Notes: generated by a model from the letters alone, not told the origin. Shown: positions 3,001 to 28,507, counted from the stretch's first letter. The stretch is 62,174 bases of DNA from Patescibacteria group bacterium (GCA_035549295.1 DASZRG010000026.1:1-62174), one strand, 5' to 3'. Made by a program: numbers and translations.

Positions 3001-3586
3001 AGAATGTTGGAATATTGAATTTGATTGTGAACATTGGCTGTCCGTCTGTGGCAGCTAAAACGCTCTCCCCTTTTCCGGATACTGACTCAGCAAATGTCTG
3101 CTGGCCTTGTGCTGTTTTAGTTTTGTTGGAGTTATTTGAAGTTATTGAGCTTGATAAGAATGTCTGTGTTAGAACAACAATCATGAAAACTGCTGCTAGA
3201 GTTGCAACGGCCGATAAGAGTAGCATGCGGACTGCTCGGTCCATTTTGAACTTGCTAGTTCGTGCAACTTCAGCCCTAATCTCTGAGTCAGCTACCAAAG
3301 CTTCGGTTATATTGAACGGCGCCTGAGGTGTCTCAATGATCTCTTGAGACGAAGGGGAGGCAGAAGAAACAGGAGCAATCGACGCGACGGCAACTGCCTT
3401 CTTCTCTTTTTTCTTTTCTATAAGCTTATCCCAAAAACCCGAGATCTGTGTTGCTGTATATCTTCTGTGGTTTCCGTCTGTTCTTTGGGGGACCAATATG
3501 CCCCTTTCTTCCCAGCGTCTTAGAGTCTTTGTAGATACTTTTAACTTCTTCGCGGCCTCTTGAATGCTTAATAATTTCTCGTCCAT
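1..3586 (-). CDS. Giant single-pass membrane fibre/adhesin-like protein with N-terminal MerR/excisionase-type HTH; C-terminus lies beyond the left window edge
   Basis: Not in the supplied ORF track. Manual minus-strand translation from the ATG at 3586-3584 stays open to nt 2 (about 1195 codons). It reads MDEKLLSIQEAAKKLKVSTKTLRRWEERGILVPQRTDGNHRRY (HTH_17/MerR-like), then a hydrophobic helix AVRMLLLSAVATLAAVFMIVVLTQTF (about nt 3172-3241). After that come G/T/S-rich repeats with the recurring unit LLGG(N/T)STxSA(K/R)FxVLNxxxGTPTASI. The + strand track ORFs at 12-3326 all share one frame and are antisense shadows. Confidence 0.8.
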   Translation of the reverse strand, partial: MDEKLLSIQEAAKKLKVSTKTLRRWEERGILVPQRTDGNHRRYTATQISGFWDKLIEKKKEKKAVAVASIAPVSSASPSSQEIIETPQAPFNITEALVADSEIRAEVARTSKFKMDRAVRMLLLSAVATLAAVFMIVVLTQTFLSSSITSNNSNKTKTAQGQQTFAESVSGKGESVLAATDGQPMFTIKFNIPTFFKEDASFLKNVKIQGLTSAVGGIDTENADINAGTGKLTASNVIYSVTAGAGISVTGGQNPIITNTGVLSIGGQTGAIALTAGSGISISGTTISSTVSAPSVDTFKNIVTGSDTITASGNNDTLNFIAGSGISLSADTGAKSLTISSNIVASTSPWQESGSVVNLVNSGDTVGIGTATTPFKLTVAGSIGPDADQAYDLGSLSDQFNNVYGSTFFSAGSAGITQGTPSCVTVSGGIVTGTGVCQLGSEQWVVSNGSIYTGVTTLDLILGGNSTASAKFAVLNVSGGTPIASLSAQNGSGQGIYLSADGSVQTPASNKLTIGGSTTGDIFLSPRGGAGSISLDSVVINGGAVTAGSWNGNTITTQYGGTGQDFSAIVQGAVPYFNGIGTMAALAPSTAGFILSTNGSGANPTWIDPTGIGPWNSANGTLYPKILTQDVLIGGNSTASAKFGFINVNSGTPTATIAGNITLSGSTPTIGTTNLNTFTLGDASTGDIVIAPAGSAAITALSGGNVGIGTGTPSQKLDVSGGIRLGAASNNNVLNTSAAGGAPTGDLFWGSRTICDTSGNCSGTGAGIGGSGDTNRIAKFTGSFNLADSSISDLYNAVALTIDAKGALGIGQTNPIGQFEVEGAPPGQALSVFSYTGSDQNIITASSSGVTVFNVDASGNIDLTNSGAYKINGASVLSSNTLGGSVVNSVLTSVGNLVSGMISVGFGTITTSNTITGTTLNGTTGINTGVGAGTQRIDASGNLVGIGSTQLNGVTYNWPGSDATLAGYVLSSDAAGHLSWIDVSTANTQIWERKNGLIIPTISTVDFALGGTSTSSARFAVLNMNVGTPTASIAAGTADNATFLTGTGFLQTTNRQTLTLGGGDTGNVNFVVGPSNNLSVNGLAGVTVGSAACVTTSNGIVTGSAACPVGSTDSPFQSIGSVIAENNQTQDFLLGGTSTSSARFAVLNISGGTPTASISGSTPNNALYITGDGTIATTNKQNLTLGSADTGNVSV

Positions 3587-4729
3587 TATGGGCAGTCTTT
3601 TAAGCCTTTCGACTTAAAAATAAATTCTGTTGTGAAAATCATGGACATTCAAAGCTGATTGTCCAATTTTTTTCTGTACATCCATAGTACTCATATTTTT
3701 CATACCGTGTCAAGCACTTTTCATAATAAAAAAACGCGATTTTTGAGGCTAAATGTCTAGTATTTTACTTTTCACGATAAATTCTTACAGAAAATCCTCA
3801 GAAATCTATAACTTTTGATATACTCTTTTTCCTAGATTTTTCACGGGATAGTGGAAATGCTATGGGATTGTAGAAGGGTATCAAAACATCAAGGGCCTGC
3901 CTTCCGGCAGGCAGGTATCAAAAGTATCAAGATTATCAGAAGTATCAGAAGCATCAGAGTTTCAGATAACAAGAAGTATCGGCTGGTCGGAGAATCAGGG
4001 GGTCTGATGGTCAGAGATTTCAGAGAATCAGAGAATCTAAGTGTTTCAGAGATCAGATAGTCGAAAAATCAGAAGAGCTAAATTAGTACTCGCGCTTCAC
4101 TCAGTGCAAGCAAAACAAGAGTTAACAAATAACCACCTAGACACCTGTGCTAGACAGAGCTATAAACCGTAGTCCGTAGTCGGTAAGCAGTAAGCATGGA
4201 TATTTGACGGTAGATTGCATACCTCACAGCAGATACCCAACTCCCCGCAATTACCACTATCTTTGCGGTTAATTTGCTATCACTCAAGACATCTCGAAGA
4301 CTTTGACCCACAAGTTATCCGCCGTTAAATACTTCACTGTTGAACTCTTTTACTGATAGACTGCTTAACCGCATAACTATTCTACAAAACCGCACTCTAT
4401 ACTCTATACTATAAGTTCTACTATAACTTGTCCTTTCACAACACTGTATCTTGTAGTATATCCTCCAGGATACCCACAATTATGTTATAGTTTTATTACA
4501 TACTTTAACGTTAATATCGGGACAAATAGCTTCATATGTCTAATTTTTACGCCATTATTTTCTCCACTTTTTGGGTCTTTTTAGTGATCAAAAAAACCTT
4601 TTTATCGAACTAAATTATTTATCACTCTAGATCGTGAAACGATAACTTTTTATTACTTTAGGACTATTTTGAATATTTGAATAATGAATAATGAAGAAAG
4701 AATAATGAACAAAGAGATACTAGAGACTA

Positions 4730-4765
4730 CCCGCCTGCAACGCTATGCGTAGCATTGCGAGCAGG
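4730..4765. repeat. Small palindromic element P1, copy 1
   Basis: CCCGCCTGCAACGCTATGCGTAGCATTGCGAGCAGG, flanked by AGATACTAG at 4715-4723 and 4771-4779. Confidence 0.8.
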
Positions 4766-4926
4766 ACATTAGATACTAGGAATTACTTTTAGTGATTAGG
4801 ATTAAAAGAATTAGTGATTAGTATTTCTAGTGCATAGAACCTAGTACTTAGTGCTCAGTTAAAATACAAAAAAATGAACTATATTCTATTTCCTATGTAC
4901 TTGAGATTTGTTCGTGATACTTTTGA

Positions 4927-5748
<822 letters not shown>

Positions 5749-5766
5749 TTGTGCGATGATTAGATT

Positions 5767-6501
5767 ATGGTAGAACTGTCCTATACCACCTACATTACAT
5801 TATTTATAGGGATTGTCATTCTGTGTGGTCTTCTCGTTTACGTGACAATTTCGTATTTCATCTCTATGAAAAGTCTTCGCGAGACAAATAAAAGACGCGA
5901 AGAACTACTGTCTCGCGCTCAAAATGACTATCAAGAGATAATTTCTGCTGCTCAAAAAAAAGCTGATGGGATAATAATGCAAGCGACAAAAATAAACCAG
6001 GAGACAGAAAGCAACCTTAATCAAGCGGTCATAAATATCTCGGAGAAGGAAGAAGAAGCAATCAGAACCAAGTCAGAACAGGTCATCAACAACTTTGAAA
6101 ACAAGCTCAGAGAGCTGAATGATAACAATATCAATCTATTCAAAACAACATCAGATGATTTCGGTAAGTTTGTAAATAATCACTTTGATGAAGTCAAAAA
6201 AATCCTCCAAGATCAGACCATGGAATCAAAAAAATTAGCCGAGGAAAAAATTCAAGGTGAATACGATGCACTCGAGAAAGAGCTCGCAGGATACAAGGAG
6301 GCGCAGATTAAAAAGATCGACGAAAACGTATATCAAATACTTTTTAATATCTCAAAGATCGCATTTGGACGCGGACTCAATCTCGAAAACCATGAGGCTC
6401 TTGTAAACGAAGCACTTGAAGAGGCAAAAAAACTATCAAACAGTAGCCCAGTCGCAATGGCCGCCGCAGCTGAAAGAGAAGGAGCAAGTAATGCAAACTG
6501 A
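5767..6501 (+). CDS. atpF: F-type ATP synthase subunit b (long form)
   Basis: One N-terminal TM helix (ITLFIGIVILCGLLVYVTISYFI) followed by a long charged coiled coil. Located between the c-like gene and delta. Confidence 0.7.
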   Translation: MVELSYTTYITLFIGIVILCGLLVYVTISYFISMKSLRETNKRREELLSRAQNDYQEIISAAQKKADGIIMQATKINQETESNLNQAVINISEKEEEAIRTKSEQVINNFENKLRELNDNNINLFKTTSDDFGKFVNNHFDEVKKILQDQTMESKKLAEEKIQGEYDALEKELAGYKEAQIKKIDENVYQILFNISKIAFGRGLNLENHEALVNEALEEAKKLSNSSPVAMAAAAEREGASNAN

Positions 6502-6985
6502 TAAAGCAAAAGGAACAATACTCGACTATCTTATAACCGAGGAGGACAGGCGCGATATACTCTCTCTACTTTCTGACGTTGAGGAAAATCTGTTCAAGAC
6601 AGATGACTCGCTAAAAAATGTAATTGGCAGCAATGCGCGCTTTGGCAGAATATTAACAGAATTTCTCCCACCTGATTGGCAGAGTCCCGAGAGCAGCGAG
6701 ACTATTGGAAGCATGATTATGGGAATCAAAAATGAAATCGTGGCTATTCCAACTGTCAACGTTGTACTCGCCATCATGGCAAATGAAAAAATTCTTAGCA
6801 TGCTTGAGTCATTTGCCCGAGATGAGCTTGGGAAAAAGGTACTATTTAAAATAGACGTAAACCCCGATATCATAGGAGGGGCAATCTTCATAATAGATGG
6901 GAATTATCTTGACTTTTCACTACTTCGAAAATTAAATGAAGCAGCAATTCAAAAGAGAGACCAAATAAATGCGCTGATTGGCTGA
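6491..6985 (+). CDS. atpH: F-type ATP synthase subunit delta (OSCP)
   Basis: The ATG at 6491 overlaps the atpF stop (ATGCAAACTGA). The C-terminal NPDIIGGAIFIIDGNYLDFSLLRKL matches the delta/OSCP C-terminal pattern. Track ORF 6416-6985 starts further upstream, inside atpF. Confidence 0.7.
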   Translation: MQTDKAKGTILDYLITEEDRRDILSLLSDVEENLFKTDDSLKNVIGSNARFGRILTEFLPPDWQSPESSETIGSMIMGIKNEIVAIPTVNVVLAIMANEKILSMLESFARDELGKKVLFKIDVNPDIIGGAIFIIDGNYLDFSLLRKLNEAAIQKRDQINALIG

Positions 6986-6996
6986 GTTAACCGCTT

Positions 6997-8505
6997 ATGG
7001 ATGATTTTCAGAAAAGCTTAAAAGAGATTGGTGAGGTTGGGTTTGTAAAAGAAGTAACGGGTGCGATAGCCTTTGTAACTGGCCTACCCCAAGTCAGACC
7101 TGACGAACTCGTAATATTTGAAAACGGAGAGATAGGCCAAGTATTCACCTTAAAACCTGATGCCGTTGAAGTCTTAACCTTCTCAAAGACTCCCATTCTA
7201 GTTGGTACAAAAGTTGCAAGATCAGGAAGGCAGTTTGAGGTACCTGTAGGAGAAGAGCTGTTATCAAACGTCATTGACCCTTTTGGCAATTCATTTGAGA
7301 ACCATAAACTATTCAAAAAGCCAGGACAAATGAGGCCGATTCATAGCGCACCACCTGGCATCAAATCGAGAAAGTCTATCAAAAGATATTTTGAGACAGG
7401 AGTATCGATCGTCGATCTCATGGTTCCTTTAGGGCGCGGACAGCGCGAACTCGTCATCGGCGACCGTAAGACTGGTAAGTCAAATTTCCTTTTGCAAACT
7501 ATGGTTTTTGCGGCAAAACAAGGCGATATATGCATCTATGCAGCTATTGGTAAAAACAAGATAGATATCAAAAGAACTGAGGAATATTTCATAAAAAACG
7601 GTGTTATCAATCGCGTCATAATCATTGCTTCATCGTCGCAAGACCAGCCAGAGATCATCCATCTTACACCCTACTCTGCGATGACAATCGCAGAGTATTT
7701 CAGAGACCAAGGACACGATGTGCTCTTGGTGCTTGATGATTTATCAACGCATGCCAAATTCTATCGCGAGATATCACTCATCGGACGACGGTTCCCTGGC
7801 CGAGACTCGTATCCGGGAGATATGTTCTATATGCATGCAAGGCTCCTTGAAAGGGCCGGAAACTTTGCAACTGAAAAAGGTGATGTTTCCATAACCTGCC
7901 TTCCGGTCGTTGAGACTCTTCAGGGAGATCTGTCAGGCTTCATCCAAACCAACATCATGTCTATGACTGATGGCCATATTTACTTTGATAGCAACCTTTT
8001 CTCTCAAGGTAGACGACCATCTGTTAATCCGTTTTTGTCTGTTACTCGTGTCGGTCATCAAACACAAAGCGACTCAAAACGCAGTATTTCACGCGAGCTT
8101 TTGACCTTTTTAACGCTTTTTGACAAAATGCAGAACATAGTCCACTTTGGATCAGAATTATCTGAAAACGTCAAAATTGTTCTTGAGACGGGCGGTAAGA
8201 TCCTCGAGCTTTTTGATCAAGAGTCAGACAAAGTCATACCTGTTAATGTTCAATCCATTGCGCTAAGCCTTCTTTGGGGCGATGACTTTAAGAGTATGGA
8301 AATATCAAAGCTTACATACTACAAAGAAAAAATATCAGAACAATATCAAAGTGATTCTAACTACAAACAAATGGTTGATGAAATAGTAAATAAGTCTAAT
8401 TCCTTCAACGAGATGCTTTCAAAAGTGAGAGAGAATTCGGATAGATTTAACGTCAACTTACCAAAGCAGGAAGCACCAGTTATGCCGAATTTTCCGAAGA
8501 AGTAA
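6997..8505 (+). CDS. atpA: F-type ATP synthase subunit alpha
   Basis: P-loop GDRKTGKS; PGRDSYPGDMFYMHARLLERA; 502 aa. Confidence 0.95.
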   Translation: MDDFQKSLKEIGEVGFVKEVTGAIAFVTGLPQVRPDELVIFENGEIGQVFTLKPDAVEVLTFSKTPILVGTKVARSGRQFEVPVGEELLSNVIDPFGNSFENHKLFKKPGQMRPIHSAPPGIKSRKSIKRYFETGVSIVDLMVPLGRGQRELVIGDRKTGKSNFLLQTMVFAAKQGDICIYAAIGKNKIDIKRTEEYFIKNGVINRVIIIASSSQDQPEIIHLTPYSAMTIAEYFRDQGHDVLLVLDDLSTHAKFYREISLIGRRFPGRDSYPGDMFYMHARLLERAGNFATEKGDVSITCLPVVETLQGDLSGFIQTNIMSMTDGHIYFDSNLFSQGRRPSVNPFLSVTRVGHQTQSDSKRSISRELLTFLTLFDKMQNIVHFGSELSENVKIVLETGGKILELFDQESDKVIPVNVQSIALSLLWGDDFKSMEISKLTYYKEKISEQYQSDSNYKQMVDEIVNKSNSFNEMLSKVRENSDRFNVNLPKQEAPVMPNFPKK

Positions 8506-8582
8506 TCTGGCACTTGGCTTTTAGCTCTTAGCTTTTGGTTAAGAATTTGATATTTGAAATTTAACACTTGAATTAAACTAAC

Positions 8583-11001
<2,419 letters not shown>

Positions 11002-13210: not shown

Positions 13211-13219
13211 AAAATTGTG

Positions 13220-13291
13220 AGCCTTCTCAGGGATTCGAACCCAGGACCTGCTGTTTACAAAACAGCTGCTCTACCACTGAGCTAAGAAGGC
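13220..13291 (-). tRNA. tRNA-Thr (anticodon UGU), no encoded CCA
   Basis: Reverse complement: GCCTTCTTAGCTCAGTGGTAGAGCAGCTGTTTTGTAAACAGCAGGTCCTGGGTTCGAATCCCTGAGAAGGCT. It folds as a cloverleaf with anticodon stem GCTGT/ACAGC, loop TTTGTAA and T-loop TTCGAAT. There is one U-U mismatch in the T stem. Confidence 0.85.
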
Positions 13292-15581: not shown

Positions 15582-15586
15582 ACTAG

Positions 15587-15659
15587 AGCCGATGGTGAGA
15601 CTTGAACTCACGACTTGCTCTTTACGAAAGAGCTACTCTACCAACTGAGTTACATCGGC
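15587..15659 (-). tRNA. tRNA-Thr (anticodon CGU), no encoded CCA
   Basis: Reverse complement: GCCGATGTAACTCAGTTGGTAGAGTAGCTCTTTCGTAAAGAGCAAGTCGTGAGTTCAAGTCTCACCATCGGCT. The cloverleaf is perfect, with anticodon loop TTCGTAA. Confidence 0.9.
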
Positions 15660-16192: not shown

Positions 16193-18925
16193 ATGCTACA
16201 TTTTCGGGCTTTATTTGATAAATATAGAAATAGGCGTGGCTTGACGCTGGTATTCTTATTTGTTCTTGCCTGTATTTCATTTGCTCTAGTTGGCTTCGTT
16301 CTACCCACCCAAAAAAATCAAAACCTACGTGTATTGATAGGAAAAGAGCTCTTCCCAACACCAAGCAAAAATCAGGCAACATCATACAAAATAGAGTTAG
16401 AGTTTGACACATCAACTCAAAAAATCGCTATCCAAAAAATAACTGCCATTCCAGAGAAAATCGTCACCAACACTCGACTCTCAGGTCAATCCCCATATGA
16501 ACTTGCATTGTCAAACGATAAATCCCCCGAAGCTTTTCGCGAAAAAATAACAATTTTTCAGCGAGTTATCGCACATTCTTCCAACCAAAAAGAAAATCTA
16601 CCGACCAACATCAAGTTTCCTGAAAAAGTTGCAACAATTATCTATACACCATATGTAAAAGACGTCGACTCCGTAGTAATTTATAAAAATGGGAAAGCTG
16701 TCGCAAAAACAAAAGTACCTGACAAAGAAAAGTCATATGAAGCTTTTATTCCTGTTAGTGTTGCTGACAATGGTAAGTTAAAAATAGCAATTATTGGTGA
16801 TGGTCTAGGTGGCAATTTTCAGTCGATGGCGCAAAGCTTCATCTCTTCTATTGCAAATGTTGCACCATATGGAAATACTGCCGATCTGATGGATTTTATT
16901 CCATACGACGGCGCGGCGTCGGCCGGATGCACAAATGGATCAAATGGGATCCTCAACTGCATACAGAGCGCGACAATGCAAAGTGTAATGCAGCAAGTCA
17001 TGAGCGCAACTGGTGCACAAGGAGTTGTCGTATTATCAAATGGGGGCGGAATTAGCGCGACAATGCCCGGCATTCCAGGACCAGCAATCATAAATACCTC
17101 CGATCAACCCACAGGACTTACATGGATCGCGACACATGAATTTCTGGGTCATGAAATAGCCCAACTAAATGACCGATATTACAATGCGGATGTTGGTGGT
17201 GGCGGCGATATCGGAATTACAAATAACAACTGCTCTCGCAATCCGAACGGTGAGTCTTGGTGGAAAACAGCAGACCCAAATTCTGTCGCAACGCTTGGGT
17301 GCCAATCAGCAACAACTTATGCACCCTACCCCAACACCTGCGGAGTCGGAAAAGGAAATGAAAATTCTATCATGTCAGGAAATTGCAATCACAGCGGCCA
17401 ATTTGATCCTGTTGAATCTTATTGGATAAGCAATTATATTATCCCCAATCTTGGATCAAGTGGTTCATCCACTGGCGGCGGCACCGGATCATCAGGTGGA
17501 AGCACGGGCGGAGTTTGTCAGTGTCTACATGGTGGGATTGTTGTTGATGGACCAGGTGGATCAAATATTGATTATGACCATACTGGAACGTGTGGTGTCG
17601 CCTATTACGGAACAGACAACAACTGGTATGCATGTACATCAACTGGCTGGGGAAGCCCAATTCCTGCCGGAAGCTGTCTAAATGGCCGCATTATTGACGA
17701 TAAAACAGGCGCTTTTATATCCAATGAATACGTTGGGACACCTGGACAAGCTGTCTGCGGAGCTGATCATCACTGGTACACTTGCAACAATGGCGACTGG
17801 GGACCTGCGGGACCAGCATGTGGCGGTACATCATCTGGGAGTGGATCGTCGTCAGGAGGAGGCTCGTCATCTGGCGGCGGATCTACCCCGCCTCAAAACA
17901 CAAACGGTTACAGCCTGACACTAACACCTAGTAAAACTACTTACGTAACTGGTGAGGTAGGTCAACTGTGTTACAAGTTAACTCCCGCCAATGTACCTTT
18001 TCATGCAGTCCTAACCCAATCGATGAATAACGGACCGTTTGGCGTACTTTTAACTTGGGATGACGATGGAAATGGCGGCGGCGGATGCATACCATCAACT
18101 GCTGCCAATGTCCCAGGATCTTACACGCTCCAACTCCAAGCAGTAGCAAACAGTGGACAGGCATATGCGCAAACTAACTTAACAATCGTCGCAGGAACTC
18201 CACCCACGATTAGTCCAACAGGTGCTACAATTAGCCCAACGAGCGGCACTACTCCGCCAGTCTCACCAACGACCGTGACAAGCCCAACCGTTGCTGTATC
18301 ACCAACAGAAGTTGTACCAACACTCGTACCAAATGCGACTGATACTCCAGCTGTATCACCAACTCCAGCCATAAGCGACACATCAACTCCTGTCCCTTCC
18401 CAAAACCCAACGAGCGCTCCGAGCGTCGCGCCGACTATCACATCCGACAACGGTCAAGTTGGAATATCGCTCACGATTCCAGGAATCGGCGGCAATACTG
18501 GCCTTGGAGAAAATGCCAATCCAACAGGTGGCGTAAAAAGCGGCATGATACAAATAAACGGCGGAGACACCCAAAACGTTACATTCAACTTTAATTCACA
18601 ATCTTTCACATTTAATAGCTTGGCTCCCCTCCCCCAAGCAACTTATGAAATAAGGGTGAGAACAGACAATTCGCTGTGGCGAGATCTGGGATTTGTAAAT
18701 GTTGCGACCGGCACGACAATAAATCTTCCGACAACGACGCTTGTCATGGGAGATCTCAACCAAGATAACCAGCTGGACCTGATGGACTACAACATGCTCA
18801 TCTCATGTTACGGAAATGCTTCATGTGACCAAAAATCGTCAGCCGATTTCAATATGGATGGGAAAGTGGATGAGAGAGATGTGAATATATTCTACTCAAG
18901 CCTAGCCAACCGAGTGGGAGACTAG
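16193..18925 (+). CDS. Secreted or anchored M64-like zinc-metallopeptidase-like protein with Cys-rich module, PT-rich linker, Ig-like module and C-terminal dockerin
   Basis: N-terminal anchor LTLVFLFVLACISFALVGFVL. ATHEFLGHEIAQLNDRYY (His at nt 17135) resembles the M64 motif HEFGHSFxxLxDEY, but with one extra residue (HExxxH). The C-terminal GDLNQDNQLDLMDYNMLISCYG...ADFNMDGKVDERDVNIFY forms two dockerin-type Ca-binding loops. Confidence 0.75.
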   Translation: MLHFRALFDKYRNRRGLTLVFLFVLACISFALVGFVLPTQKNQNLRVLIGKELFPTPSKNQATSYKIELEFDTSTQKIAIQKITAIPEKIVTNTRLSGQSPYELALSNDKSPEAFREKITIFQRVIAHSSNQKENLPTNIKFPEKVATIIYTPYVKDVDSVVIYKNGKAVAKTKVPDKEKSYEAFIPVSVADNGKLKIAIIGDGLGGNFQSMAQSFISSIANVAPYGNTADLMDFIPYDGAASAGCTNGSNGILNCIQSATMQSVMQQVMSATGAQGVVVLSNGGGISATMPGIPGPAIINTSDQPTGLTWIATHEFLGHEIAQLNDRYYNADVGGGGDIGITNNNCSRNPNGESWWKTADPNSVATLGCQSATTYAPYPNTCGVGKGNENSIMSGNCNHSGQFDPVESYWISNYIIPNLGSSGSSTGGGTGSSGGSTGGVCQCLHGGIVVDGPGGSNIDYDHTGTCGVAYYGTDNNWYACTSTGWGSPIPAGSCLNGRIIDDKTGAFISNEYVGTPGQAVCGADHHWYTCNNGDWGPAGPACGGTSSGSGSSSGGGSSSGGGSTPPQNTNGYSLTLTPSKTTYVTGEVGQLCYKLTPANVPFHAVLTQSMNNGPFGVLLTWDDDGNGGGGCIPSTAANVPGSYTLQLQAVANSGQAYAQTNLTIVAGTPPTISPTGATISPTSGTTPPVSPTTVTSPTVAVSPTEVVPTLVPNATDTPAVSPTPAISDTSTPVPSQNPTSAPSVAPTITSDNGQVGISLTIPGIGGNTGLGENANPTGGVKSGMIQINGGDTQNVTFNFNSQSFTFNSLAPLPQATYEIRVRTDNSLWRDLGFVNVATGTTINLPTTTLVMGDLNQDNQLDLMDYNMLISCYGNASCDQKSSADFNMDGKVDERDVNIFYSSLANRVGD

Positions 18926-19045
18926 CCGCAAGGGTTTAGCGTTTAGCGGTTAGGGGTTAGTTAAGAACTAAGAACCAACCGCCAACAGCCAACCCCAAAT
19001 CTCTTGACTTACCTTCCGCTTTCGCTCTATTCTAGATACGTGGGT

Positions 19046-21373
19046 ATGTTTTCATATCGAGAGTTTTTGCGCGAGTTTAGACGAACTGTATTTTTCAAGC
19101 GCGGCGGCGGCCTCGTGCTTTTCGGCATAGTACTTTCAGCTCTCTCCTTTACTCTACTCACATATCAATATTTACCGGAGTCAATTAACCCCCAGCAATC
19201 CTATCAGAGTTTAATTAAAGTAAGTATTAGTGATTACTACATTCCATTTACTGATGCCCCCTATAGTGGAAAGACAGAAATACCAAAGTCTGGACACACT
19301 TGTACAGATGGTAATGATGGAGTTAAAACAACAGGAGGAATACTTGGAACAACTAAATATGCCTGTAACAAAGATTCATCTGGCAATCAATCAATTTGTA
19401 CGGATATCGGAGATGGTTATCTTCGCTGCTCAGCAACAAAACCAGTTACATCTCTTTATACCAACAACGGCAGTAATTCATATACCTGTTCTACTGATAA
19501 ATTAAAAATCACCAAAACATCAGGAGAGGATGTAATTTCATGTCCGTCAATTGGAGGACAACAATCATATTGCTATAACACAGCAGGAGATACCAATGCA
19601 TATGCTTGCGGCATTCCGGGTAATCCAAATCCCATAATCACTGGGCCAACGTCTACTCCTGCGCCGTCATCAGGTCTTCCGCCAAGTGATGCAACTTGCA
19701 ATCTTAACAATCCACAAGCATATTGCGTAGGCTGGGTTTTATCGCCAGGAAATGACCTCTACAATCCGCCAGCTTTAACTTCTGATGCTTCAGCCTGCTG
19801 GGCAAGATGCAATAGTGATCCAAATTGTCTTTCATATAGTTGGCATAAAGTCACAAGTAATGGGCTGGGTGAATGTTGGGAGAAAAATATAGTTAATACT
19901 CCTATCAAAAATATAGAATATAACTCAGGTCTTGTTTATCCAAAGACTCCAGCTCCAACTGTTCCACCACCAGTCAAAGTTACTCCACCGCCAGCAGGAC
20001 CTCCTCCCGGAACCAATCTTCTAACAGGAACTTGCGACCATGGTGGAATAGTTGTTGATGGGCCTGGTGGGTCAAATATAGATACCAACTTTTCTGGTCA
20101 GGTAGGAAATGCATATTACGGAACGGATAACAATTGGTATGCATGTACTTCAAAAGGCTGGTATGGACCAATTACTGCCGGCAGCTGCCTCAATGGGAAT
20201 ATTATTGACGCAACGACTGGAAGCGCTTTAACAACTGAATTTGTCGGTGAGCCAAATCAATTTGTCTGTGGTGCAGACTTTCAAAACTGGCAATGTAATG
20301 GAGCTGGAGTCTGGGTTGCAAAGGGCGGTTCATGCGGACGTCCTGCAAGCACCTGCACTGGAACCAACAAGCTAGCATGTAATAGCGACTGCTGGTCTGT
20401 TACGTCATCTGCGTGTGCAGTTCCTTACTCTTGTCCGACAGGCGCAGGCGGACCCACATGCTCACAACCTGCTGGTGGATCATCCGGCGGAGGAAGCGGT
20501 AGCGGAAGCGGAGGCAACCAAACTCCACCTCCACCACTGACAACTCCGACACTTCCAGCTTGTCAAAATAATGGCACAACCTCACTTGCATGTGGTCAAA
20601 AATGTCTTTGCGTTGGAGCGGGTGATGCGTCTTGTGATCACAGCCAAATAACACTCGATTCGCCAACGAATACCTGTGGTACGGGTGCTAAATGGACTTG
20701 TGCTTCAGGCGCGTCCAACCCTATTTGTCAGCCGGCAACGAGTCCGACCAGTGCGATTAGTCCAACAGTTGCAACAAGTCCTACTGTTGTAACAAGTCCA
20801 ATAGTTGCCGTTTCCGATACGCCTATACCCGGTCTAACTAGCACAAATGCTCCCACCTCAACTCCAATTATTACTGGTACAAGTATTGGACTTTATTTGA
20901 CCCTCGATGGTGTCGGATCAAATGCATCGATTGGTCAGAATAACAATCCTATCAATGCCAATATGCCTGTCCAAGTCCAGATATTTGACGTAACAGGCAA
21001 CAAGATTCAAGAGACATCGGGAACGCTTAATTACAACTCGCAAAGCGCACAATTCGAAGGAGTTATCGCACTCGGCAATCTTCCGACCAATCCTTACAAC
21101 ATCAAAGTCAGATTCAACAATACTCTATGGAAGAGAGTAAGCAGCATAATAACAGCAGGACAGTCTACCAAAATTCCATCGGTCAAACTCATAAACGGAG
21201 ACCTAAATGGCGACAATCAACTTGATCTTCTGGACTACACAACTATGATATCCTGTTATGGTACGGGCCAGTGTAGTCAGAAAGCTGCGGCCGACCTCAA
21301 TCTCGACGGCGTAGTTGACGAGAAAGATTTGAACCTCCTCTATTCCCACTTCGCCGTGCGCGAAGGAGACTAG
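19046..21373 (+). CDS. Secreted Cys-rich protein with PAN/apple-like segment, shared Cys-rich module, Ig-like module and C-terminal dockerin
   Basis: Track ORF 19004-21373 starts at TTG; the ATG at 19046 gives MFSYREF. CWARCNSDPNCLSYSWHKVTSNGLGECWEKN is PAN/apple-like. The C-terminus is GDLNGDNQLDLLDYTTMISCYG...ADLNLDGVVDEKDLNLLY. Confidence 0.75.
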   Translation: MFSYREFLREFRRTVFFKRGGGLVLFGIVLSALSFTLLTYQYLPESINPQQSYQSLIKVSISDYYIPFTDAPYSGKTEIPKSGHTCTDGNDGVKTTGGILGTTKYACNKDSSGNQSICTDIGDGYLRCSATKPVTSLYTNNGSNSYTCSTDKLKITKTSGEDVISCPSIGGQQSYCYNTAGDTNAYACGIPGNPNPIITGPTSTPAPSSGLPPSDATCNLNNPQAYCVGWVLSPGNDLYNPPALTSDASACWARCNSDPNCLSYSWHKVTSNGLGECWEKNIVNTPIKNIEYNSGLVYPKTPAPTVPPPVKVTPPPAGPPPGTNLLTGTCDHGGIVVDGPGGSNIDTNFSGQVGNAYYGTDNNWYACTSKGWYGPITAGSCLNGNIIDATTGSALTTEFVGEPNQFVCGADFQNWQCNGAGVWVAKGGSCGRPASTCTGTNKLACNSDCWSVTSSACAVPYSCPTGAGGPTCSQPAGGSSGGGSGSGSGGNQTPPPPLTTPTLPACQNNGTTSLACGQKCLCVGAGDASCDHSQITLDSPTNTCGTGAKWTCASGASNPICQPATSPTSAISPTVATSPTVVTSPIVAVSDTPIPGLTSTNAPTSTPIITGTSIGLYLTLDGVGSNASIGQNNNPINANMPVQVQIFDVTGNKIQETSGTLNYNSQSAQFEGVIALGNLPTNPYNIKVRFNNTLWKRVSSIITAGQSTKIPSVKLINGDLNGDNQLDLLDYTTMISCYGTGQCSQKAAADLNLDGVVDEKDLNLLYSHFAVREGD

Positions 21374-21482
21374 GAAACCTGCCGGAAGGTATCAAAAGTA
21401 CCATAAGCATCAAGGATATCAAAAGCTAATCTCTGGATTAAAATATTGGTGGCATTGGTAGTAATTGTAGTATTATTAAACT

Positions 21483-22832
21483 GTGTTTGAGAAATTATTC
21501 CCTACTTATCGCAGACTTGGATTATTCCTTTTCTTGGCTGTTGCTGTTTTGTCTATCCCTTTCACGCTCTCGCTGCTGTCTCATCAACAGGACATAAGAC
21601 AGCATGCTGACTATGAGGATACCTCCACTCAACCGCCGCCGAATTATAACGATCAGACTCAAAGCAATACGTCAATCGCAGTTGGTGGCGATACAACAAC
21701 ACAAGCAGGAGACGTTACTGGATATGAGAAAACCCCTTTCGGAACGGCCTCATGTGGACCAGGCGGATGTTTTCTTGCAAATGGCGATGAGGTGGGAGAT
21801 GTAAATGGCAAGATGGCAATTACAAATGGTGCCTCGCTAACTTGCGGTTCCACTGGATGTGTAAACGCAAATGGAACGACTGTAGATCCAAATGCTGCAC
21901 GCCAGTCTCTTGGTCCAGGTCTTCAAGCCTGCACCACTCTGGCATCAAGGAATGGCTTTCCAAATGTCCAACAAATGTGCCAATATCACGACCTGTCAAA
22001 CCCCATGTGCCCAGTTGTTGGTGCCACAAATGGTCTTTGCTGTGACGCGTGTGGATCCGCCGATACACTGTCGCCTGCGACAAACACTTCGCTCTATGTA
22101 ACGCTTACTCCTACTCCAATTCAATCGACACCAACTTCAACACCAAGACCCACCAGAACACCAACCCCGATTAAGTCTGGAATTTTTTCAACTTTAACTC
22201 CGACCCAATCCGTAACAACATTCATGCCGCCCGATACTGTAACCCCGATTCAATCGATACCAACGGAGATTCCGACTCAAAATGCCGAAATAGCATCAGT
22301 AGTAAGTCCAACACAACAAGCATCACAAACAACTCCGGGCGCAACCAGCATAAATCTTTCAATAAAAGTTGAAGGAGTTGGCTCAAACACAACTATCGGA
22401 GAGAATCCAAATCCCAATCCGTCAACCCAATATATTAATGTTTCGATCTTTGACTTGAATAATAACTTTCTTCAAGAAATCCCTTCCTCAGTCAACTATG
22501 ATAGCCCCTCTTCGACTTTCAAAAATATAATATCTGCAAGTATTCCAAGCGGCACCTACAAGCTCAAAATCAGACTTGGAAATACTTTGTGGAAAGCTAT
22601 TAATAATGCTGTTCTAAACTCTCAAACAACCCCTATCTCTGTCTCGATCGTCCCCGGAGACCTCAACTCAGATAATTCTCTTGATCTGTATGACTACAAC
22701 ACTATGATATCTTGTTATGGTACAAGCCAGTGCAGTCAGAAAACTCAAGCTGACCTCAATATGGATGGCAAAGTTGACGAGCAAGACCTGAATATCCTGT
22801 ATTCCGAGTTTACGAACCGACAAGGAGACTAG
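21483..22832 (+). CDS. Secreted Cys-rich protein with Ig-like module and C-terminal dockerin
   Basis: GTG start. N-terminus RLGLFLFLAVAVLSIPFTLSLLSHQQDIRQHAD. C-terminus GDLNSDNSLDLYDYNTMISCYG...ADLNMDGKVDEQDLNILY. Confidence 0.75.
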   Translation: MFEKLFPTYRRLGLFLFLAVAVLSIPFTLSLLSHQQDIRQHADYEDTSTQPPPNYNDQTQSNTSIAVGGDTTTQAGDVTGYEKTPFGTASCGPGGCFLANGDEVGDVNGKMAITNGASLTCGSTGCVNANGTTVDPNAARQSLGPGLQACTTLASRNGFPNVQQMCQYHDLSNPMCPVVGATNGLCCDACGSADTLSPATNTSLYVTLTPTPIQSTPTSTPRPTRTPTPIKSGIFSTLTPTQSVTTFMPPDTVTPIQSIPTEIPTQNAEIASVVSPTQQASQTTPGATSINLSIKVEGVGSNTTIGENPNPNPSTQYINVSIFDLNNNFLQEIPSSVNYDSPSSTFKNIISASIPSGTYKLKIRLGNTLWKAINNAVLNSQTTPISVSIVPGDLNSDNSLDLYDYNTMISCYGTSQCSQKTQADLNMDGKVDEQDLNILYSEFTNRQGD

Positions 22833-22942
22833 ATGATAGGAGTTAGGGGTTGGCGTTTGGGGGTTAGCAAAAGACTAAAAGCTAAGAGCTAAATGCCAAC
22901 CGCCATTCACTACTCTTGTTTCGCTGTCGCCAATCTCCTATC

Positions 22943-24529
22943 ATGAAAATTGTGTTTGAAAAGATCATTTCATCAAAAAAAAGGCTTGGACTATTTTTGT
23001 TTGTAGCAACTGCGCTTCTTTCTATCCCCTTCACTCTCTCGCTTCTTGCAAGACAACAAGATCTTCGCCAGCATGCTGATGATGGTGGGTTTGGAGACAT
23101 TTGTCTTGATTGTCAGCTCAATGGTGATGGTGGTGGAAGCCCACCTCTTGGTGGTGGAGGAATTTTTGGTGGCGGTGGAACAGTTGTCGGAGGAGTTGGT
23201 GGCGGTGGAACTCTGACATGTGACCAACTAGCACAACAAAACGGAGCATCATCCATGGCAGCATACTGTTCAGCCAATGGAGGACTTTGTCCAAGTACTG
23301 CAAATGGAACATGCGGGTGCACAAGTTGTGCCGGTGGTACGGGCGGAAGCGCAACAGGAGCCGGCGGCTCTCAACAAAATACAACAGGCGCACTTACAAA
23401 TTGCACAGTAGACAATTCATATATCGCAGTAGATAGTGATGAGCAAAGTGAAGTGGATCTCATAAATCAATACAGACAACAAAATGGCCTACCGGCTCTG
23501 CCACTCTCACTCGCTTTGACTCGCGATGCTGCTTGGATGACCAAGGACATGGGAGATAAAAATTACTTTAGTCATACTGATTCAGCAGGTAGATCTTGGG
23601 ATACTCGTGCATCACAATGTGGCTATCCCGACTTCGCAGCAGATATTCTTGATGCTGGTACCGGCAACATAACCCCTCAATCGACCCTTGTTGATTGGCA
23701 GAACTCTCCAGGACACGACAAAGTCATAAAAGATCATATCGACGGTACTGATACCACTTACGACTGGAAAGCCATAGGAATAGCCCATTACACGGCAAGT
23801 AATGGCCAAACTTATTGGGATGCGGTATTTGGTCTGACAAATGACGGCGGTGTTGTGCCAACAATTGCCGCAACGCCAACACCGACCAATACTCCTACTC
23901 CAACGTCGCATCCGACAGCAACACCAATACCGACTCAGGCCGGACTTTCACCAACACAAAGTCAATCAAACCCAACTGCTACTCCAATCGTCCAACAGTC
24001 GCCAACTGCAACTCCTACTCTTGCTGCAAATTCCAGTGCGATTTCTATTAACTTTACGCTTCCAGGTATTGGCGGTAACCAAAATGCAGGTGAGAATTCC
24101 AATCCAATGTCCTACAATTTACCCACCGAAATTGCAGTATATGATCTGTCGGGAAATAAACTTGCAGACAACAATTTAACCGCATCATACAACTCAACAA
24201 CCTTCATCTACAATCTTCAAGCAGCACTGGGTGCGGCAGCTGGAACTTATGACTTTAAAATAAGAACAGCATCATCTCTTTGGAAAGATATAGGAACAGT
24301 CACGGTATCTGTTGGACAAGTTGCCAATGGTGGAACCGTTGCGCTCATCACGGGTGACCTAACACAAGACAACTCACTTGATCTAGCCGACTATAACGCC
24401 ATTATTTCATGCTATGGCGACAATCCTTGCGCCAACCCTCAAGCCGCAGATCTTAATATGGACGGGATAGTTGATGAACGCGACCTCAACATCTTCTACT
24501 CGGGACTCTCAGCGAGACAGGGAGACTAG
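22943..24529 (+). CDS. Secreted CAP/SCP (PR-1-like) domain protein with Ig-like module and C-terminal dockerin
   Basis: The ATG at 22943 gives MKIVFEKIISSKKRLGLFLF (track ORF begins at 22916). YRQQNGLPAL...FSHTDSAGRSW...WQNSPGHDKVI...GQTYWDAVFG follows the CAP/SCP pattern. C-terminus GDLTQDNSLDLADYNAIISCYG...ADLNMDGIVDERDLNIFY. Confidence 0.8.
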   Translation: MKIVFEKIISSKKRLGLFLFVATALLSIPFTLSLLARQQDLRQHADDGGFGDICLDCQLNGDGGGSPPLGGGGIFGGGGTVVGGVGGGGTLTCDQLAQQNGASSMAAYCSANGGLCPSTANGTCGCTSCAGGTGGSATGAGGSQQNTTGALTNCTVDNSYIAVDSDEQSEVDLINQYRQQNGLPALPLSLALTRDAAWMTKDMGDKNYFSHTDSAGRSWDTRASQCGYPDFAADILDAGTGNITPQSTLVDWQNSPGHDKVIKDHIDGTDTTYDWKAIGIAHYTASNGQTYWDAVFGLTNDGGVVPTIAATPTPTNTPTPTSHPTATPIPTQAGLSPTQSQSNPTATPIVQQSPTATPTLAANSSAISINFTLPGIGGNQNAGENSNPMSYNLPTEIAVYDLSGNKLADNNLTASYNSTTFIYNLQAALGAAAGTYDFKIRTASSLWKDIGTVTVSVGQVANGGTVALITGDLTQDNSLDLADYNAIISCYGDNPCANPQAADLNMDGIVDERDLNIFYSGLSARQGD

Positions 24530-24643: not shown

Positions 24644-25717
24644 ATGACAAATGCAATCGAATCAGATACGAAAACCGCATACGGCATGTACATCTTTGAT
24701 GGAGCTAGAATAGATAATCCTGATCGTTTAGAAAATCAAGAATTATTAACTCTCTGGGATGCAGAGATAGATACAGCTTTTGAAGAACTTTATAGCATGT
24801 ATTCCTCTAAAAAAATCCCACGTCTCATAGATCTACTATCCCATGCTGCTACAAATAAGTCGATTGCCCGAAAAAGAAAGAATTCTTATCCATCCCCAAG
24901 ATCGAGGACAGAATCGCAAGAGAACGAGGCGAGGGAGTTCAAATGGTATGAAAATAGATGGCGACAAATTGAAATGAGAAATATTCTTACTGCTCTAGAT
25001 TGGAAAAACCAAGGTGTTGCTGGAATAAAAGCAAAAATTATACCACCACCTGATCCCACTCACATGCAAGACTCAATCGAAATTAAGTTTGATGTTGGCT
25101 ATGGTGAAAATTATATATCTAAAACCTCGCTGGATGGGTTTGCAAGATACCGATCGAAAGAAGAAATAGAAGATTTAGTCCGCTCTCCTTATGGTAAATA
25201 TATTCTAAATCGACCAAGTATCGATAGAGCTGAATCTCCTTCACCAGAACAATTACTTCATCTCTGGGAATCGGAAATTGGAGAAGCAGAAGACGAAATA
25301 GACTCCATAATAGGAACTCGAAATCTTGCATTTCTTGTTCCTTTGATGAGACACGCTTCAAGAAATACCTCAGAAGCAAGTAGAAATTCTAAAAACCGCC
25401 ACGATCCAAACTCGCCAGACTACGAAATAAGCCGAACGATGCATAGGTATACCAACAAATGGCAGGAAATAAAAATCTTGGCGATGTGCGAAGCTTTGAA
25501 AATGAAAAGAAGAGGAGATGAACGAGTAAAAGTTGCCATAGTACCCGCAAAACAAGGCGCGGAACAATATGGTGATACCCTAGTAGTTGAAATAAGCATG
25601 AATGATGGTCAAAATCCTTACTATACGAACGCATCCTACAAGGAATTAAAGCAAGCTTTAAACTCATCTGATCTAAGTGAATTTGACTCGTACTTCCAAA
25701 GCTCTAATGAAGAATAA
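24644..25717 (+). CDS. Hypothetical cytoplasmic protein made of two tandem copies of a domain of about 165 aa
   Basis: Residues about 12-165 and 183-345 align. For example, LLTLWDAEIDTAFEELYS...RLIDLLSHAATNKS...WRQIEMRNILTAL matches LLHLWESEIGEAEDEIDS...FLVPLMRHASRNTS...WQEIKILAMCEAL. Confidence 0.6.
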   Translation: MTNAIESDTKTAYGMYIFDGARIDNPDRLENQELLTLWDAEIDTAFEELYSMYSSKKIPRLIDLLSHAATNKSIARKRKNSYPSPRSRTESQENEAREFKWYENRWRQIEMRNILTALDWKNQGVAGIKAKIIPPPDPTHMQDSIEIKFDVGYGENYISKTSLDGFARYRSKEEIEDLVRSPYGKYILNRPSIDRAESPSPEQLLHLWESEIGEAEDEIDSIIGTRNLAFLVPLMRHASRNTSEASRNSKNRHDPNSPDYEISRTMHRYTNKWQEIKILAMCEALKMKRRGDERVKVAIVPAKQGAEQYGDTLVVEISMNDGQNPYYTNASYKELKQALNSSDLSEFDSYFQSSNEE

Positions 25718-25783: not shown

Positions 25784-26593
25784 ATGAATGTTATTCACGC
25801 TGTCATACTCGGGATAGTTGAAGGTATTACGGAATTTCTCCCTATCTCATCCACTGGTCATCTCATACTCGTCTCAAACATATTACAAATTGCGCAAACT
25901 GATTTTGTAAAGACTTTTGAAATAGCCATTCAGTCGGGTGCTATACTCGCTGTTATAGCACTCTACTGGAGACGAATTATGCAAAATGTCCAACTTTTCA
26001 GGCACGTTGTCGTCGCATTCATACCAACAGGGATTGTCGGATTTGTTCTTTATAAATTGATAAAACACTACCTCCTCGGCAACTCAATGGTGGTAGTCGT
26101 ATCACTTCTTGTCGGAGGAGTTGCACTTATTGGTATAGAAATGCTTCTCGCAAAAAAAGCTAAGAAAAAATCCATTCTAGAAGATGGCTCCACCACAAGC
26201 CACACGCCACACGCAACAAGTCCCATGTCTTATGAAAAAGCTGCTATCATCGGACTATTCCAGTCGATCGCAGTAATTCCTGGAGTATCTCGCTCGGCCA
26301 GTACAATAGTTGGCGCGATGCTTCTCGGGGTAGATCGCACAACCGCGACAGAATTTTCATTTCTACTCGCCGTTCCAACAATGCTTGCGGCAACAGCACT
26401 TGATCTAAAAGACTCAAGCTTTTCATTTGGAACCAATGAGTGGATCGCACTTGGAGTAGGTTTTATCGTCGCATTTGCTGTTGCGATAGTTGCTATCAAA
26501 TGGCTCGTGAAATACGTCCAGACACACAATTTCATCGCCTTCGGCATCTACCGCATAATCATCGCGATTATCTTTTCCCTAATCCTAAAGTAA
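25784..26593 (+). CDS. uppP: Undecaprenyl-diphosphatase (BacA/UppP)
   Basis: N-terminal GIVEGITEFLPISSTGHLIL plus PGVSRSASTI; polytopic membrane protein of 269 aa. Confidence 0.9.
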   Translation: MNVIHAVILGIVEGITEFLPISSTGHLILVSNILQIAQTDFVKTFEIAIQSGAILAVIALYWRRIMQNVQLFRHVVVAFIPTGIVGFVLYKLIKHYLLGNSMVVVVSLLVGGVALIGIEMLLAKKAKKKSILEDGSTTSHTPHATSPMSYEKAAIIGLFQSIAVIPGVSRSASTIVGAMLLGVDRTTATEFSFLLAVPTMLAATALDLKDSSFSFGTNEWIALGVGFIVAFAVAIVAIKWLVKYVQTHNFIAFGIYRIIIAIIFSLILK

Positions 26594-27460: not shown

Positions 27461-28507
27461 CTATTCGTCGGAGGATAGGCGGGTGCGTCTTTTGCGCTTG
27501 AATTTACTGAGCAATTTGTCTTTGAGCTCAGGCTTGGCATATGAAATGATCAAAAACAATGCCACCAAGACAATAACTACTGTGCCTACTGCTTCTTCGT
27601 GTCCCTGCAGTTTGTCAAAAATTGAGCCCCCCGCATTCGCGGGCGCGGGCGTTGGCGTGTCGGTAGGAGTGACCTCAGGGGTATCCGTAGGTGCATCTGT
27701 TGGAGTATCATCTACAGACTGAGATGAAACATCACTTGTAGTGTTAGTGGTAATAGGTGCAACGCTCGTGCTACCGGCACCAGGCGAGTTAGATACTTCG
27801 TTTGAATATGGGCCTGGAGTACCACAGCTATTGACCGCCTTTATAGCAAAATAATAGTTCTTCCCAGATGACAACCCTCCCACAGTGTATGACGTGACAT
27901 TTCCAACATTTGGGTTGCCATAGATATACTGCCCTGTTGCTATTCCATATGAGACTAGATAGTAAGAGACAGAGCCTGTTGATGGCGCAGTCCACGTGAG
28001 AGTCAAACCACTAGTACCTGATGTAGTTGGATTGTTGAGCGAGGGTGCGCTCGGTACCGTATCGGAACACGATGGTGTTGGAGTCGGCGTTGACGAGCTT
28101 GTAAACACCACCTGACCAAGAGAGTTAAGAGTTGTGGAGGTAGTGTTGTCCACTACATTGAGTGAATCAGTCCCTACGGTCGTCGAATGGATCGTAAATG
28201 TGGCGAGACCATTGCTGTCAGTCGTTGCCGATGAAGGGCTTATCACTGCTGCACTGTCAGAAGGCGCTATAACAGACACAGAGTCGCCTACAAGAGCATT
28301 TCCAGAGCTGTCGTGAAGTGTCACCTGGATACTAGACGTAGTTGATCCATCAGCCACAACGCTTGATGGGTTGGGTGAAAGCGTTGAGTGGCCAGCATCA
28401 GGCGGACTACCCGCAAGCACCATAGTCGCGGTCATAGTCGACATGAAGAAAAGCGACAAAAGAACGAACAATATTTTTCTTATAATTTCTGGCATATTTA
28501 TGCTCAC
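27461..28507 (-). CDS. Cell-surface protein: signal peptide, Big_1 (invasin-type Ig) domain, fibronectin type III domain, PT-rich linker, C-terminal TM anchor
   Basis: HSTLSPNPSSVVADGSTTSSIQVTLHDSSGNALVGDSV...DSNGLATFTIHSTTVG is Big_1-like. LTLTWTAPSTGSVSYYLVSYG...YTVGGLSSGKNYYFAIKAVNSCG is FN3-like. The C-terminus is VVIVLVALFLIISYA followed by KFKRKRRTR. Start is the GTG at 28507 or the ATG at 28495. Confidence 0.75.
   Translation of the reverse strand: MSINMPEIIRKILFVLLSLFFMSTMTATMVLAGSPPDAGHSTLSPNPSSVVADGSTTSSIQVTLHDSSGNALVGDSVSVIAPSDSAAVISPSSATTDSNGLATFTIHSTTVGTDSLNVVDNTTSTTLNSLGQVVFTSSSTPTPTPSCSDTVPSAPSLNNPTTSGTSGLTLTWTAPSTGSVSYYLVSYGIATGQYIYGNPNVGNVTSYTVGGLSSGKNYYFAIKAVNSCGTPGPYSNEVSNSPGAGSTSVAPITTNTTSDVSSQSVDDTPTDAPTDTPEVTPTDTPTPAPANAGGSIFDKLQGHEEAVGTVVIVLVALFLIISYAKPELKDKLLSKFKRKRRTRLSSDE

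Follow-up and report, generated by a model that had tools for sequence, protein, structure and literature searches.

A tandem array of predicted surface proteins with exchangeable heads and a common type II-like X-module-dockerin tail in a Levybacteria-like patescibacterium

Introduction

In cellulosomes, the type II X-module-dockerin dyad (X-Doc) attaches the scaffoldin to anchoring cohesins on the cell surface. Here, we describe a stretch of 62,174 nucleotides (nt) from a Patescibacteria group bacterium (GCA_035549295.1, DASZRG010000026.1:1-62174; referred to as the window throughout), in which positions 16193-24529 encode four consecutive proteins, A to D, whose C-terminal tails are, judged by profile matches and a predicted structure, dyads of this type II kind. 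The closest known system is the X-DocII of CipA from Clostridium (Acetivibrio) thermocellum, which binds cohesins of the SdbA/OlpB/ScaA type (PDB 2B59, 3KCP/4FL4, 5K39, 5M0Y). In both, an Ig-like X-module runs directly into a dockerin of two loops and three helices that forms the extreme C-terminus, and the candidate partner cohesins found in relatives of the array sit, as in the type II system of C. thermocellum, on anchoring proteins. However, sequence identity to the C. thermocellum chains is only 17-19%, the cargo consists of CAP, PAN, Cys-rich and zincin-like heads instead of a cohesin-rich scaffoldin, the anchors in the relatives are N-terminal helices or LPXTG signals instead of SLH repeats, and the organism is a patescibacterium and not a Firmicute.

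For cohesins with an LPXTG signal, the closest described case is ScaE of Ruminococcus flavefaciens, a single cohesin attached to the wall by sortase. It receives the X-Doc of both ScaB and CttA, the latter a non-enzymatic adhesin, and the system serves mainly in fibre degradation. Cohesin- and dockerin-like modules outside cellulosomes have reportedly been catalogued across bacteria and archaea. There, too, dockerins accompany domains of peptidase, adhesion and unassigned type in organisms without cellulose degradation, and they have been suggested to act in the envelope or in host interaction; the present locus differs by its conserved family of X-Doc dyads, by partner cohesins, adaptors and anchors that are identifiable in its own lineage, and by its variable island.

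Little is known about how the ultra-small Patescibacteria (Candidate Phyla Radiation, CPR) build their surface or attach themselves to partner cells, and the majority of their surface proteins lack annotation. One dockerin-domain envelope protein, SEML1_0315 of a cultured Saccharibacterium, has been reported as essential (PMC10633639). Our searches of the literature turned up no account of an X-Doc/cohesin system from Patescibacteria. Its components and likely mechanism are known from elsewhere, while the cargo, the anchoring, the phylum, a dockerin Cys pair that is conserved and the arrangement as a variable island differ. We favour the reading, at a probability of roughly 60%, that proteins A to D are exported, serve as cargo subunits in a cohesin-X-dockerin system for surface display outside the cellulosome, and dock in a Ca2+-dependent manner onto anchored cohesins of their own cell.

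Results and discussion

The array and its common tail

Four consecutive open reading frames (ORFs) on the plus strand, separated by gaps of 78, 109 and 83 nt, make up the array:

16193..18925, plus strand: gene A, 910 amino acids (aa); N-terminal helix, beta-rich region, M64-like zincin-like head (HEFLGH), Cys-rich module, Ig-like module, Pro/Thr (PT) linker, X-Doc
19004..21373, plus strand: gene B, 789 aa from 19004, or 775 aa from the ATG at 19046 chosen by other gene callers, so that its start is uncertain; N-terminal helix, Cys-rich regions (36 Cys), PAN/apple, Cys-rich module common to A and B, PT linker, X-Doc
21483..22832, plus strand: gene C, 449 aa; N-terminal helix with a QQDIRQHA motif, Cys-rich head, PT linker, X-Doc
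22916..24529, plus strand: gene D, 537 aa, or 528 or 525 aa from later starts chosen by other callers (start likewise uncertain); N-terminal helix with a QQDLRQHA motif, Gly/Cys-rich region, CAP/SCP, PT linker, X-Doc

Each protein has a single strongly hydrophobic segment close to the N-terminus and a linker of 41-47% Pro plus Thr that precedes the tail. The last ~165 aa are 40-60% identical among the proteins, with 32 invariant columns in the alignment of the four tails. When the six-frame translation of the window was scanned with a profile of this alignment, only these four ORFs matched (E-values of 1e-83 to 1e-91), which excludes chance as an explanation of the array. An earlier note on this DNA, made from the sequence alone, had described four same-strand genes with an N-terminal anchor or signal, a PT-rich linker and a conserved C-terminal region, and this layout is confirmed here. 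The DNA of the tails is no more than 68-75% identical. The four genes are therefore old paralogues, and neither a recent duplication of the tails nor recent conversion between them is tenable.

The tails are located as follows:

18428..18922, plus strand: X-Doc tail of A; Dockerin_1 27.9 bits, Ca loops at aa 854 and 885 of the protein
20876..21370, plus strand: X-Doc tail of B, the sequence used for modelling; Dockerin_1 34.3 bits
22335..22829, plus strand: X-Doc tail of C; Dockerin_1 31.7 bits, two Ca loops
24032..24526, plus strand: X-Doc tail of D; Dockerin_1 21.6 bits, two Ca loops, the first with Thr at position 3

Measured against the Pfam cut-off of 22.9 bits for Dockerin_1 (PF00404, a duplicated F-hand Ca-binding segment), the tails of A, B and C score above and that of D marginally below it. 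All four carry two 12-residue loops of the form D-x-N/T-x-D-x-x-x-D-x-x-D at a spacing of 31 residues, and the arrangement expected of a dockerin, with Asp or Asn at loop positions 1, 3, 5, 9 and 12 followed by a helix, is found in the predicted Ca2+ sites (helices H121-130 and H152-162 in the AlphaFold2 model of the B tail). The earlier note had named missing dockerin profile matches or a lack of Ca-binding geometry as grounds for giving up the idea; the profiles match, and canonical loop motifs are present in all four tails.

The tail profile extends beyond the dockerin. It spans both modules of the CipA X-module-DocII from C. thermocellum (2B59_B, E = 5e-11, profile positions 44-162) and further matches 3KCP_A, 5G5D_B and the X-Doc of Acetivibrio cellulolyticus (4U3S_B). 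An AlphaFold2 model of the B tail (168 aa, alignment of 48 sequences) reached a predicted local distance difference test score (pLDDT) of 95.5 and a predicted template-modelling score (pTM) of 0.89, with eight strands followed by three helices. In this model, the Ig-like X-module directly precedes the dockerin and packs against it to form a single unit. A Foldseek search of the PDB with the model returned only four chains at E < 1e-5 (5K39_B, 4FL4_I, 5M0Y_B and 2B59_B), all of them type II X-Doc chains of C. thermocellum from complexes with cohesin (E of 4e-7 to 3e-6, ~170 aligned columns, template-modelling scores of 0.53-0.63). The Ig-like module and two-loop dockerin proposed in the earlier note can thus be specified as a type II X-Doc, an identity which points to docking of the anchoring type rather than of the enzyme type (type I).

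A pair of Cys residues (SCYG...C) lies between the two Ca loops in more than 90% of the members of the tail family; to our knowledge, it is not a feature of cellulosomal dockerins. Should the favoured reading be true, the family would offer new orthogonal cohesin-dockerin pairs with a conserved dockerin Cys pair for protein engineering.

Heads of the four proteins and of their relatives

The following features were assigned in the heads:

16742..17471, plus strand: divergent M64-like region in the head of A, with HEFLGH at aa 315
17522..17872, plus strand: Cys-rich module of A, common to B; 39% identity in BLASTP of A against B from A444/B344 onwards, 75% DNA identity over 172 nt
19745..19879, plus strand: PAN_4 (PF14295) of B, aa 248-292
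23453..23812, plus strand: CAP (PF00188; PR-1/YkwD-like) of D, aa 180-299

Three head identities had been proposed, of which two hold. The PAN domain of B scores 31.0 bits against a Pfam cut-off of 27, and the CAP domain of D 32.4 bits against 21.1. D also matches the YkwD model TIGR02909 at E = 3.9e-12, but with 46 bits it stays far below the cut-off of that model (171 bits). Apart from this distance, it is the fusion to an X-Doc tail that sets these proteins apart from described CAP/SCP/PR-1 and PAN/apple families. The third assignment, M64 for A, is not supported, as Peptidase_M64 (IgA peptidase) scored 15.0 bits on the whole protein and 19.2 bits on the excised head, against a cut-off of 26. 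Instead of HExxH, A has the HExxxH motif HEFLGH, whereas the M64 form is HEFGH...EEY; a different member of the tail family (P0052) contains the canonical M64 motif HEFGHSFGDLSEEY. HEFLGH is kept in both known relatives of the A head, P0124 (36% identity) and a gene in a Candidatus Levybacteria contig (L003:12238-14133, 31%), and this conserved variant points to a related but divergent predicted site. PDB sequence searches with the A head gave no match, and its AlphaFold2 model, built on a two-sequence alignment, had a pLDDT of 44.6 and was too poor for a fold search. The Levybacteria gene just mentioned (minus strand, 631 aa) also contains the Cys-rich module and has no X-Doc tail; it lies on the strand opposite to the array of that contig, at its end.

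Parts of the proteins other than the tail are shared as well. The Cys-rich module of ~110 aa is common to A (aa 444-560) and B (aa 344-450), and C and D have their first ~150 aa in common. In C and D, the N-terminal helix, which in this group often contains I-P-x-T, is followed by a motif of the form QQQ(D/E)(I/L/T)R(Q/S)(R/H)A (C aa 1-45, 21483-21620; D aa 1-52, 22916-23070). The same combination occurs in 20 of 132 relatives, P0007, P0021, P0057 and P0131 among them, and in cohesin-bearing relatives with such a motif the cohesin begins 5-10 residues past it. The motif may serve this lineage as its own signal for export or cleavage. The N-termini of A and B are of another type, FFKRGGG plus helix.

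With the tail profile (164 positions), 1.84 billion representatives were searched exhaustively using HMMER. The family comprises 5,258 representatives at E ≤ 1e-3 and 106 at E ≤ 1e-30; at E ≤ 1e-10, the locus links 1,679 representative clusters to the tractable, Ca2+-dependent docking of cohesins and dockerins. Among the best 150 relatives, the match nearly always covers the whole profile and lies at the extreme C-terminus of proteins that are very different in length. A Pfam scan of 83 relatives detected Dockerin_1 in 64 (E ≤ 1e-3), CAP as the commonest head in 23, SdrD_B in nine, PAN_4 in eight and Cohesin in four, besides VWA, reprolysin/M64/M11 peptidases, phytase, beta-helix and others. 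The tail is accordingly a common plug on many heads, which supports the exchangeability of heads that had been proposed from the four genes; the A-type head without a tail in L003 agrees with this.

This head repertoire bears on the most familiar context of such modules. Dockerin together with cohesin is the hallmark of the cellulosome, and the tail fold matches components from C. thermocellum, so that A to D might be enzymes that assemble on a scaffoldin and degrade plant cell walls. Yet profile scans of the four heads found no glycoside hydrolase, carbohydrate esterase, polysaccharide lyase or carbohydrate-binding module, the commonest heads across the family are CAP, SdrD_B and PAN, the tail is of the X-Doc anchoring type and not a type I enzyme dockerin, and a scaffoldin with cohesins of the same system is absent from the window. 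We therefore regard a conventional cellulosome as extremely improbable.

Word-indexed homolog searches gave one match for the tail, eight for the 48-sequence tail profile and eight for a cohesin profile, with no useful names, and cluster look-ups named a single tail-family member, from Candidatus Levybacteria. A scan of a genome collection relied on two narrow peptide patterns from the four-tail alignment, and the spread obtained is a lower bound; the window's own genome was not among its matches. More distant X-module-dockerin tails (~29% identity, profile positions ~26-160) were seen at C-termini in Fimbriimonadales and other Armatimonadota (L010, L011, L013, L016, L020, L027 and others), and the dyad is thus not restricted to Patescibacteria and Firmicutes.

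Cohesins: none found in the window, several in related loci

A cellulosomal cohesin sequence served as a probe only, and all cohesin matches used here were re-verified with Pfam. In relatives of the array, cohesins are found both within X-Doc proteins and next to them. Pfam Cohesin scores above its cut-off in P0131, P0103, P0150, P0092 and P0080, each consisting of an N-terminal helix, a cohesin, a linker and an X-Doc, and a local cohesin hidden Markov model (HMM) recovered this layout in 16 of the 150 best X-Doc relatives. X-Doc genes are followed directly by Pfam-confirmed cohesin ORFs in contigs from a Patescibacteria group bacterium (L008), Candidatus Levyibacteriota (L012) and the Microgenomates group (L056), as well as in L033; tandem X-Doc arrays are also present in L007, L008 and L009. 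The cohesin proteins of L033 and L056 have a signal, a cohesin, a Ser/Thr linker, LPQTG or LPRSG and a hydrophobic tail, which is the form of a sortase wall-sorting signal. In this layout they match ScaE of R. flavefaciens, and they lie beside X-Doc genes; no such cohesin was found in the window, and the ScaE/CttA structures are absent from the top Foldseek matches. In L041, a gene for a helix-cohesin-cohesin-X-Doc protein adjoins one for a helix-cohesin-cohesin-Fn3 protein with a C-terminal transmembrane helix.

A further locus brings several of these components together. At positions 1-10636 of a 751-kb contig (L083, ERZ25039480), a VWA/SdrD_B-X-Doc gene, two cohesin-X-Doc genes and a gene for a 211-aa helix-cohesin protein (transmembrane helix plus cohesin) follow each other on one strand. 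By its gene content, this block looks like a complete, operon-like set of cargo, adaptor and anchor, a hierarchy that parallels cellulosomal organisation.

The surface protein at 27461-28507 of the window (minus strand), which the earlier note had put forward as a possible receptor, consists of a signal, Big_1, Fn3, an acidic PT linker and a C-terminal helix, and hhalign gave a probability of 0.1% for a cohesin; the receptor assignment is thus not sustained. Its Fn3 domain is 39% identical (E = 1e-17) to that of the two-cohesin protein in L041, which has the same kind of C-terminal anchor. The protein thus pairs another N-terminal domain with an anchor chassis of related type and is itself no cohesin.

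Based on these data, each of the proteins A to D would be exported through its N-terminal hydrophobic signal or anchor, where export, topology and cleavage of the helix are predictions. The Pro/Thr stalk, presumably flexible, would separate the head from the C-terminal dyad, and the X-Doc would bind, in a Ca2+-dependent manner, a cohesin on a protein that the same cell anchors in its membrane or wall, with or without cohesin-X-Doc adaptors in between. In this way, four heads could be presented at the surface: a divergent M64-like zincin, PAN/apple plus Cys-rich modules, a Cys-rich module and CAP/PR-1. The partner would be encoded elsewhere in this genome, and the heads may act in adhesion or host interaction. 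The likely receptor is a cohesin of the organism itself, because confirmed cohesin genes adjoin X-Doc genes in relatives. This reading predicts concrete partners, namely small anchored cohesins and cohesin-X-Doc adaptors, and, if true, it extends X-dockerin anchoring from the cellulosomes of Firmicutes to non-cellulolytic surface display in a distant phylum.

Several observations weigh against display on own cohesins. As the earlier note had stated, no cohesin is recognisable in the 62-kb window: the best match of the lineage-specific cohesin HMM had E = 0.69, and an hhalign sweep of all ORFs of at least 90 aa gave probabilities below 1%. Nor was a cohesin found in ~20 kb around the three closest syntenic arrays (L003, L005 and L006). 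Dockerins in genomes without any cohesin are said to be common in other phyla, a pattern into which the dockerin-only matches of our genome-collection scan in Planctomycetota fit. If the N-terminal helix is retained, the proteins are already tethered to the membrane, and docking would not be needed to hold them there. Promoter and terminator scans stayed at chance level and gave no information on operon structure.

In the main rival explanation, the X-Doc works without any cohesin, as a Ca2+-stabilised module that binds glycans of the wall or of a host, or that self-associates and thereby clusters the membrane-anchored paralogues. The absence of cohesins from the window and from the 20-kb neighbourhoods, the hydrophobic helix on every one of the four proteins and the many dockerin-only matches in phyla without known cohesins would all be accounted for. 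Against this explanation, 16 of 150 tail-family members carry a cohesin themselves, at least six loci of related bacteria have a cohesin gene right next to an X-Doc gene, an arrangement difficult to explain without pairing, and the tail fold matches type II X-Doc structures which bind cohesins. We consider such orphan dockerins unlikely.

The tails could also plug into cohesin-like receptors of a host, in which case the array would supply the host-attachment ligands of an episymbiotic CPR cell. The organism is a Levybacteria-like member of the Patescibacteria, a group whose cultured members live as epibionts (PMC10633639), and the window has no cohesin of its own, both of which agree with docking between cells. 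However, the cohesins are encoded by Patescibacteria genomes themselves, beside X-Doc genes and with membrane or LPXTG anchors of their own. A receptor on the host is less likely than one on the same cell, and we rate this explanation as very unlikely.

Returning to display on the cell's own cohesins, a broader form of this reading may tentatively be proposed, although we lean against accepting it in full. In CPR bacteria of the Levybacteria type, cohesins and X-dockerins might form a full hierarchy made up of cohesin bases that are anchored in the membrane or by sortase, of cohesin-X-Doc adaptors and of a large number of head-X-Doc cargos. It would serve as an all-purpose plug-and-play platform for surface display that has nothing to do with the breakdown of cellulose. 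On this view, the cargo genes from tRNA-Thr(CGT) to uppP would make up a fast-diversifying island by which the cell adjusts its adhesion to partner cells or its manipulation of them, and cohesin-X-Doc proteins might polymerise head-to-tail into surface fibres.

Genomic slot and neighbouring genes

The window is ordinary chromosome, with genes for an F-type ATP synthase, leucyl-tRNA synthetase, UppP and a histidine kinase. Loci in synteny with the array were found in the Candidatus Levybacteria contig L003 and in two contigs of metagenome-assembled genomes (MAGs), L005 and L006. Common to them is the order atpA-atpG-atpD, tRNA-Thr(TGT), tRNA-Thr(CGT), X-Doc array, uppP, WecG glycosyltransferase, a 335-aa protein and a PEGA protein; between the window and these three contigs, UppP is 57-69% and the 335-aa protein 88-90% identical. 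From this synteny, we conclude that the host organism is Levybacteria-like (Microgenomates/Patescibacteria). The borders of the slot in the window are:

13219..13291, minus strand: tRNA-Thr(TGT), a second tRNA-Thr gene just upstream of the array
15586..15659, minus strand: tRNA-Thr(CGT), left border of the island (ARAGORN and Rfam)
25784..26593, plus strand: uppP/BacA (PF02673), conserved flank and right border of the island

The island is bounded by tRNA-Thr(CGT) and uppP, since this tRNA gene directly precedes the first X-Doc gene in all syntenic loci (L003, L005 and L006 as well as the window). In the relatives, tRNA-Thr genes were located at 4899-4970 and 5784-5858 (L003), 3592-3665 (L005), and 5863-5937 and 7401-7474 (L006). 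The array lies beside two tRNA-Thr genes and its linkers are very rich in Thr, which may or may not be a coincidence.

Within this slot, the heads differ from locus to locus. The window has M64-like, PAN plus Cys-rich, Cys-rich and CAP heads; L003 has CAP, PAN and beta-helix heads and, on the opposite strand, the A-type head without a tail; in L005, a CAP head accompanies two heads of unassigned type; L006 has CAP heads. The varying gene number and head content in a conserved slot point to a variable surface repertoire, and the slot thereby marks a chromosomal position where the displayed set changes between genomes.

Between gene D and uppP, the window contains a 357-aa ORF (24644-25717, plus strand) with two internal repeats (27% identity, E = 4e-17). 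It showed no family match and no hydrophobic segment, has no counterpart in the syntenic loci of L003, L005 or L006, and looks like an insertion confined to the genome of the window.

The earlier note had compared the array to a polymorphic effector set. In the formal sense, this would be a toxin locus with exchangeable toxic domains and cognate immunity genes, to which the tandem paralogues with swapped modules and the window-specific ORF after gene D bear some resemblance. The polarity is reversed, though, with the variable part N-terminal or central and the constant part C-terminal. Moreover, no small immunity-like genes are evident between the array genes, whose gaps measure 78-109 nt, and the heads are adhesion or PR-1-type domains and not known toxin folds. 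The comparison in this sense was dropped, and we give such a locus next to no credence.

Two minor observations concern the wider data. L004, L005, L006, L033, L041 and L054 are third-party annotation (TPA) MAG records titled 'uncultured Gammaproteobacteria bacterium'. This label looks wrong, because L005 and L006 match the window and the Levybacteria contig in gene order, with flanking proteins that are 56-90% identical. Further downstream in the window, a 1346-aa ORF (55027-59067, plus strand) has the unusual architecture of two phage-integrase N-terminal SAM-like domains combined with Peptidase_S74, the endosialidase intramolecular chaperone.

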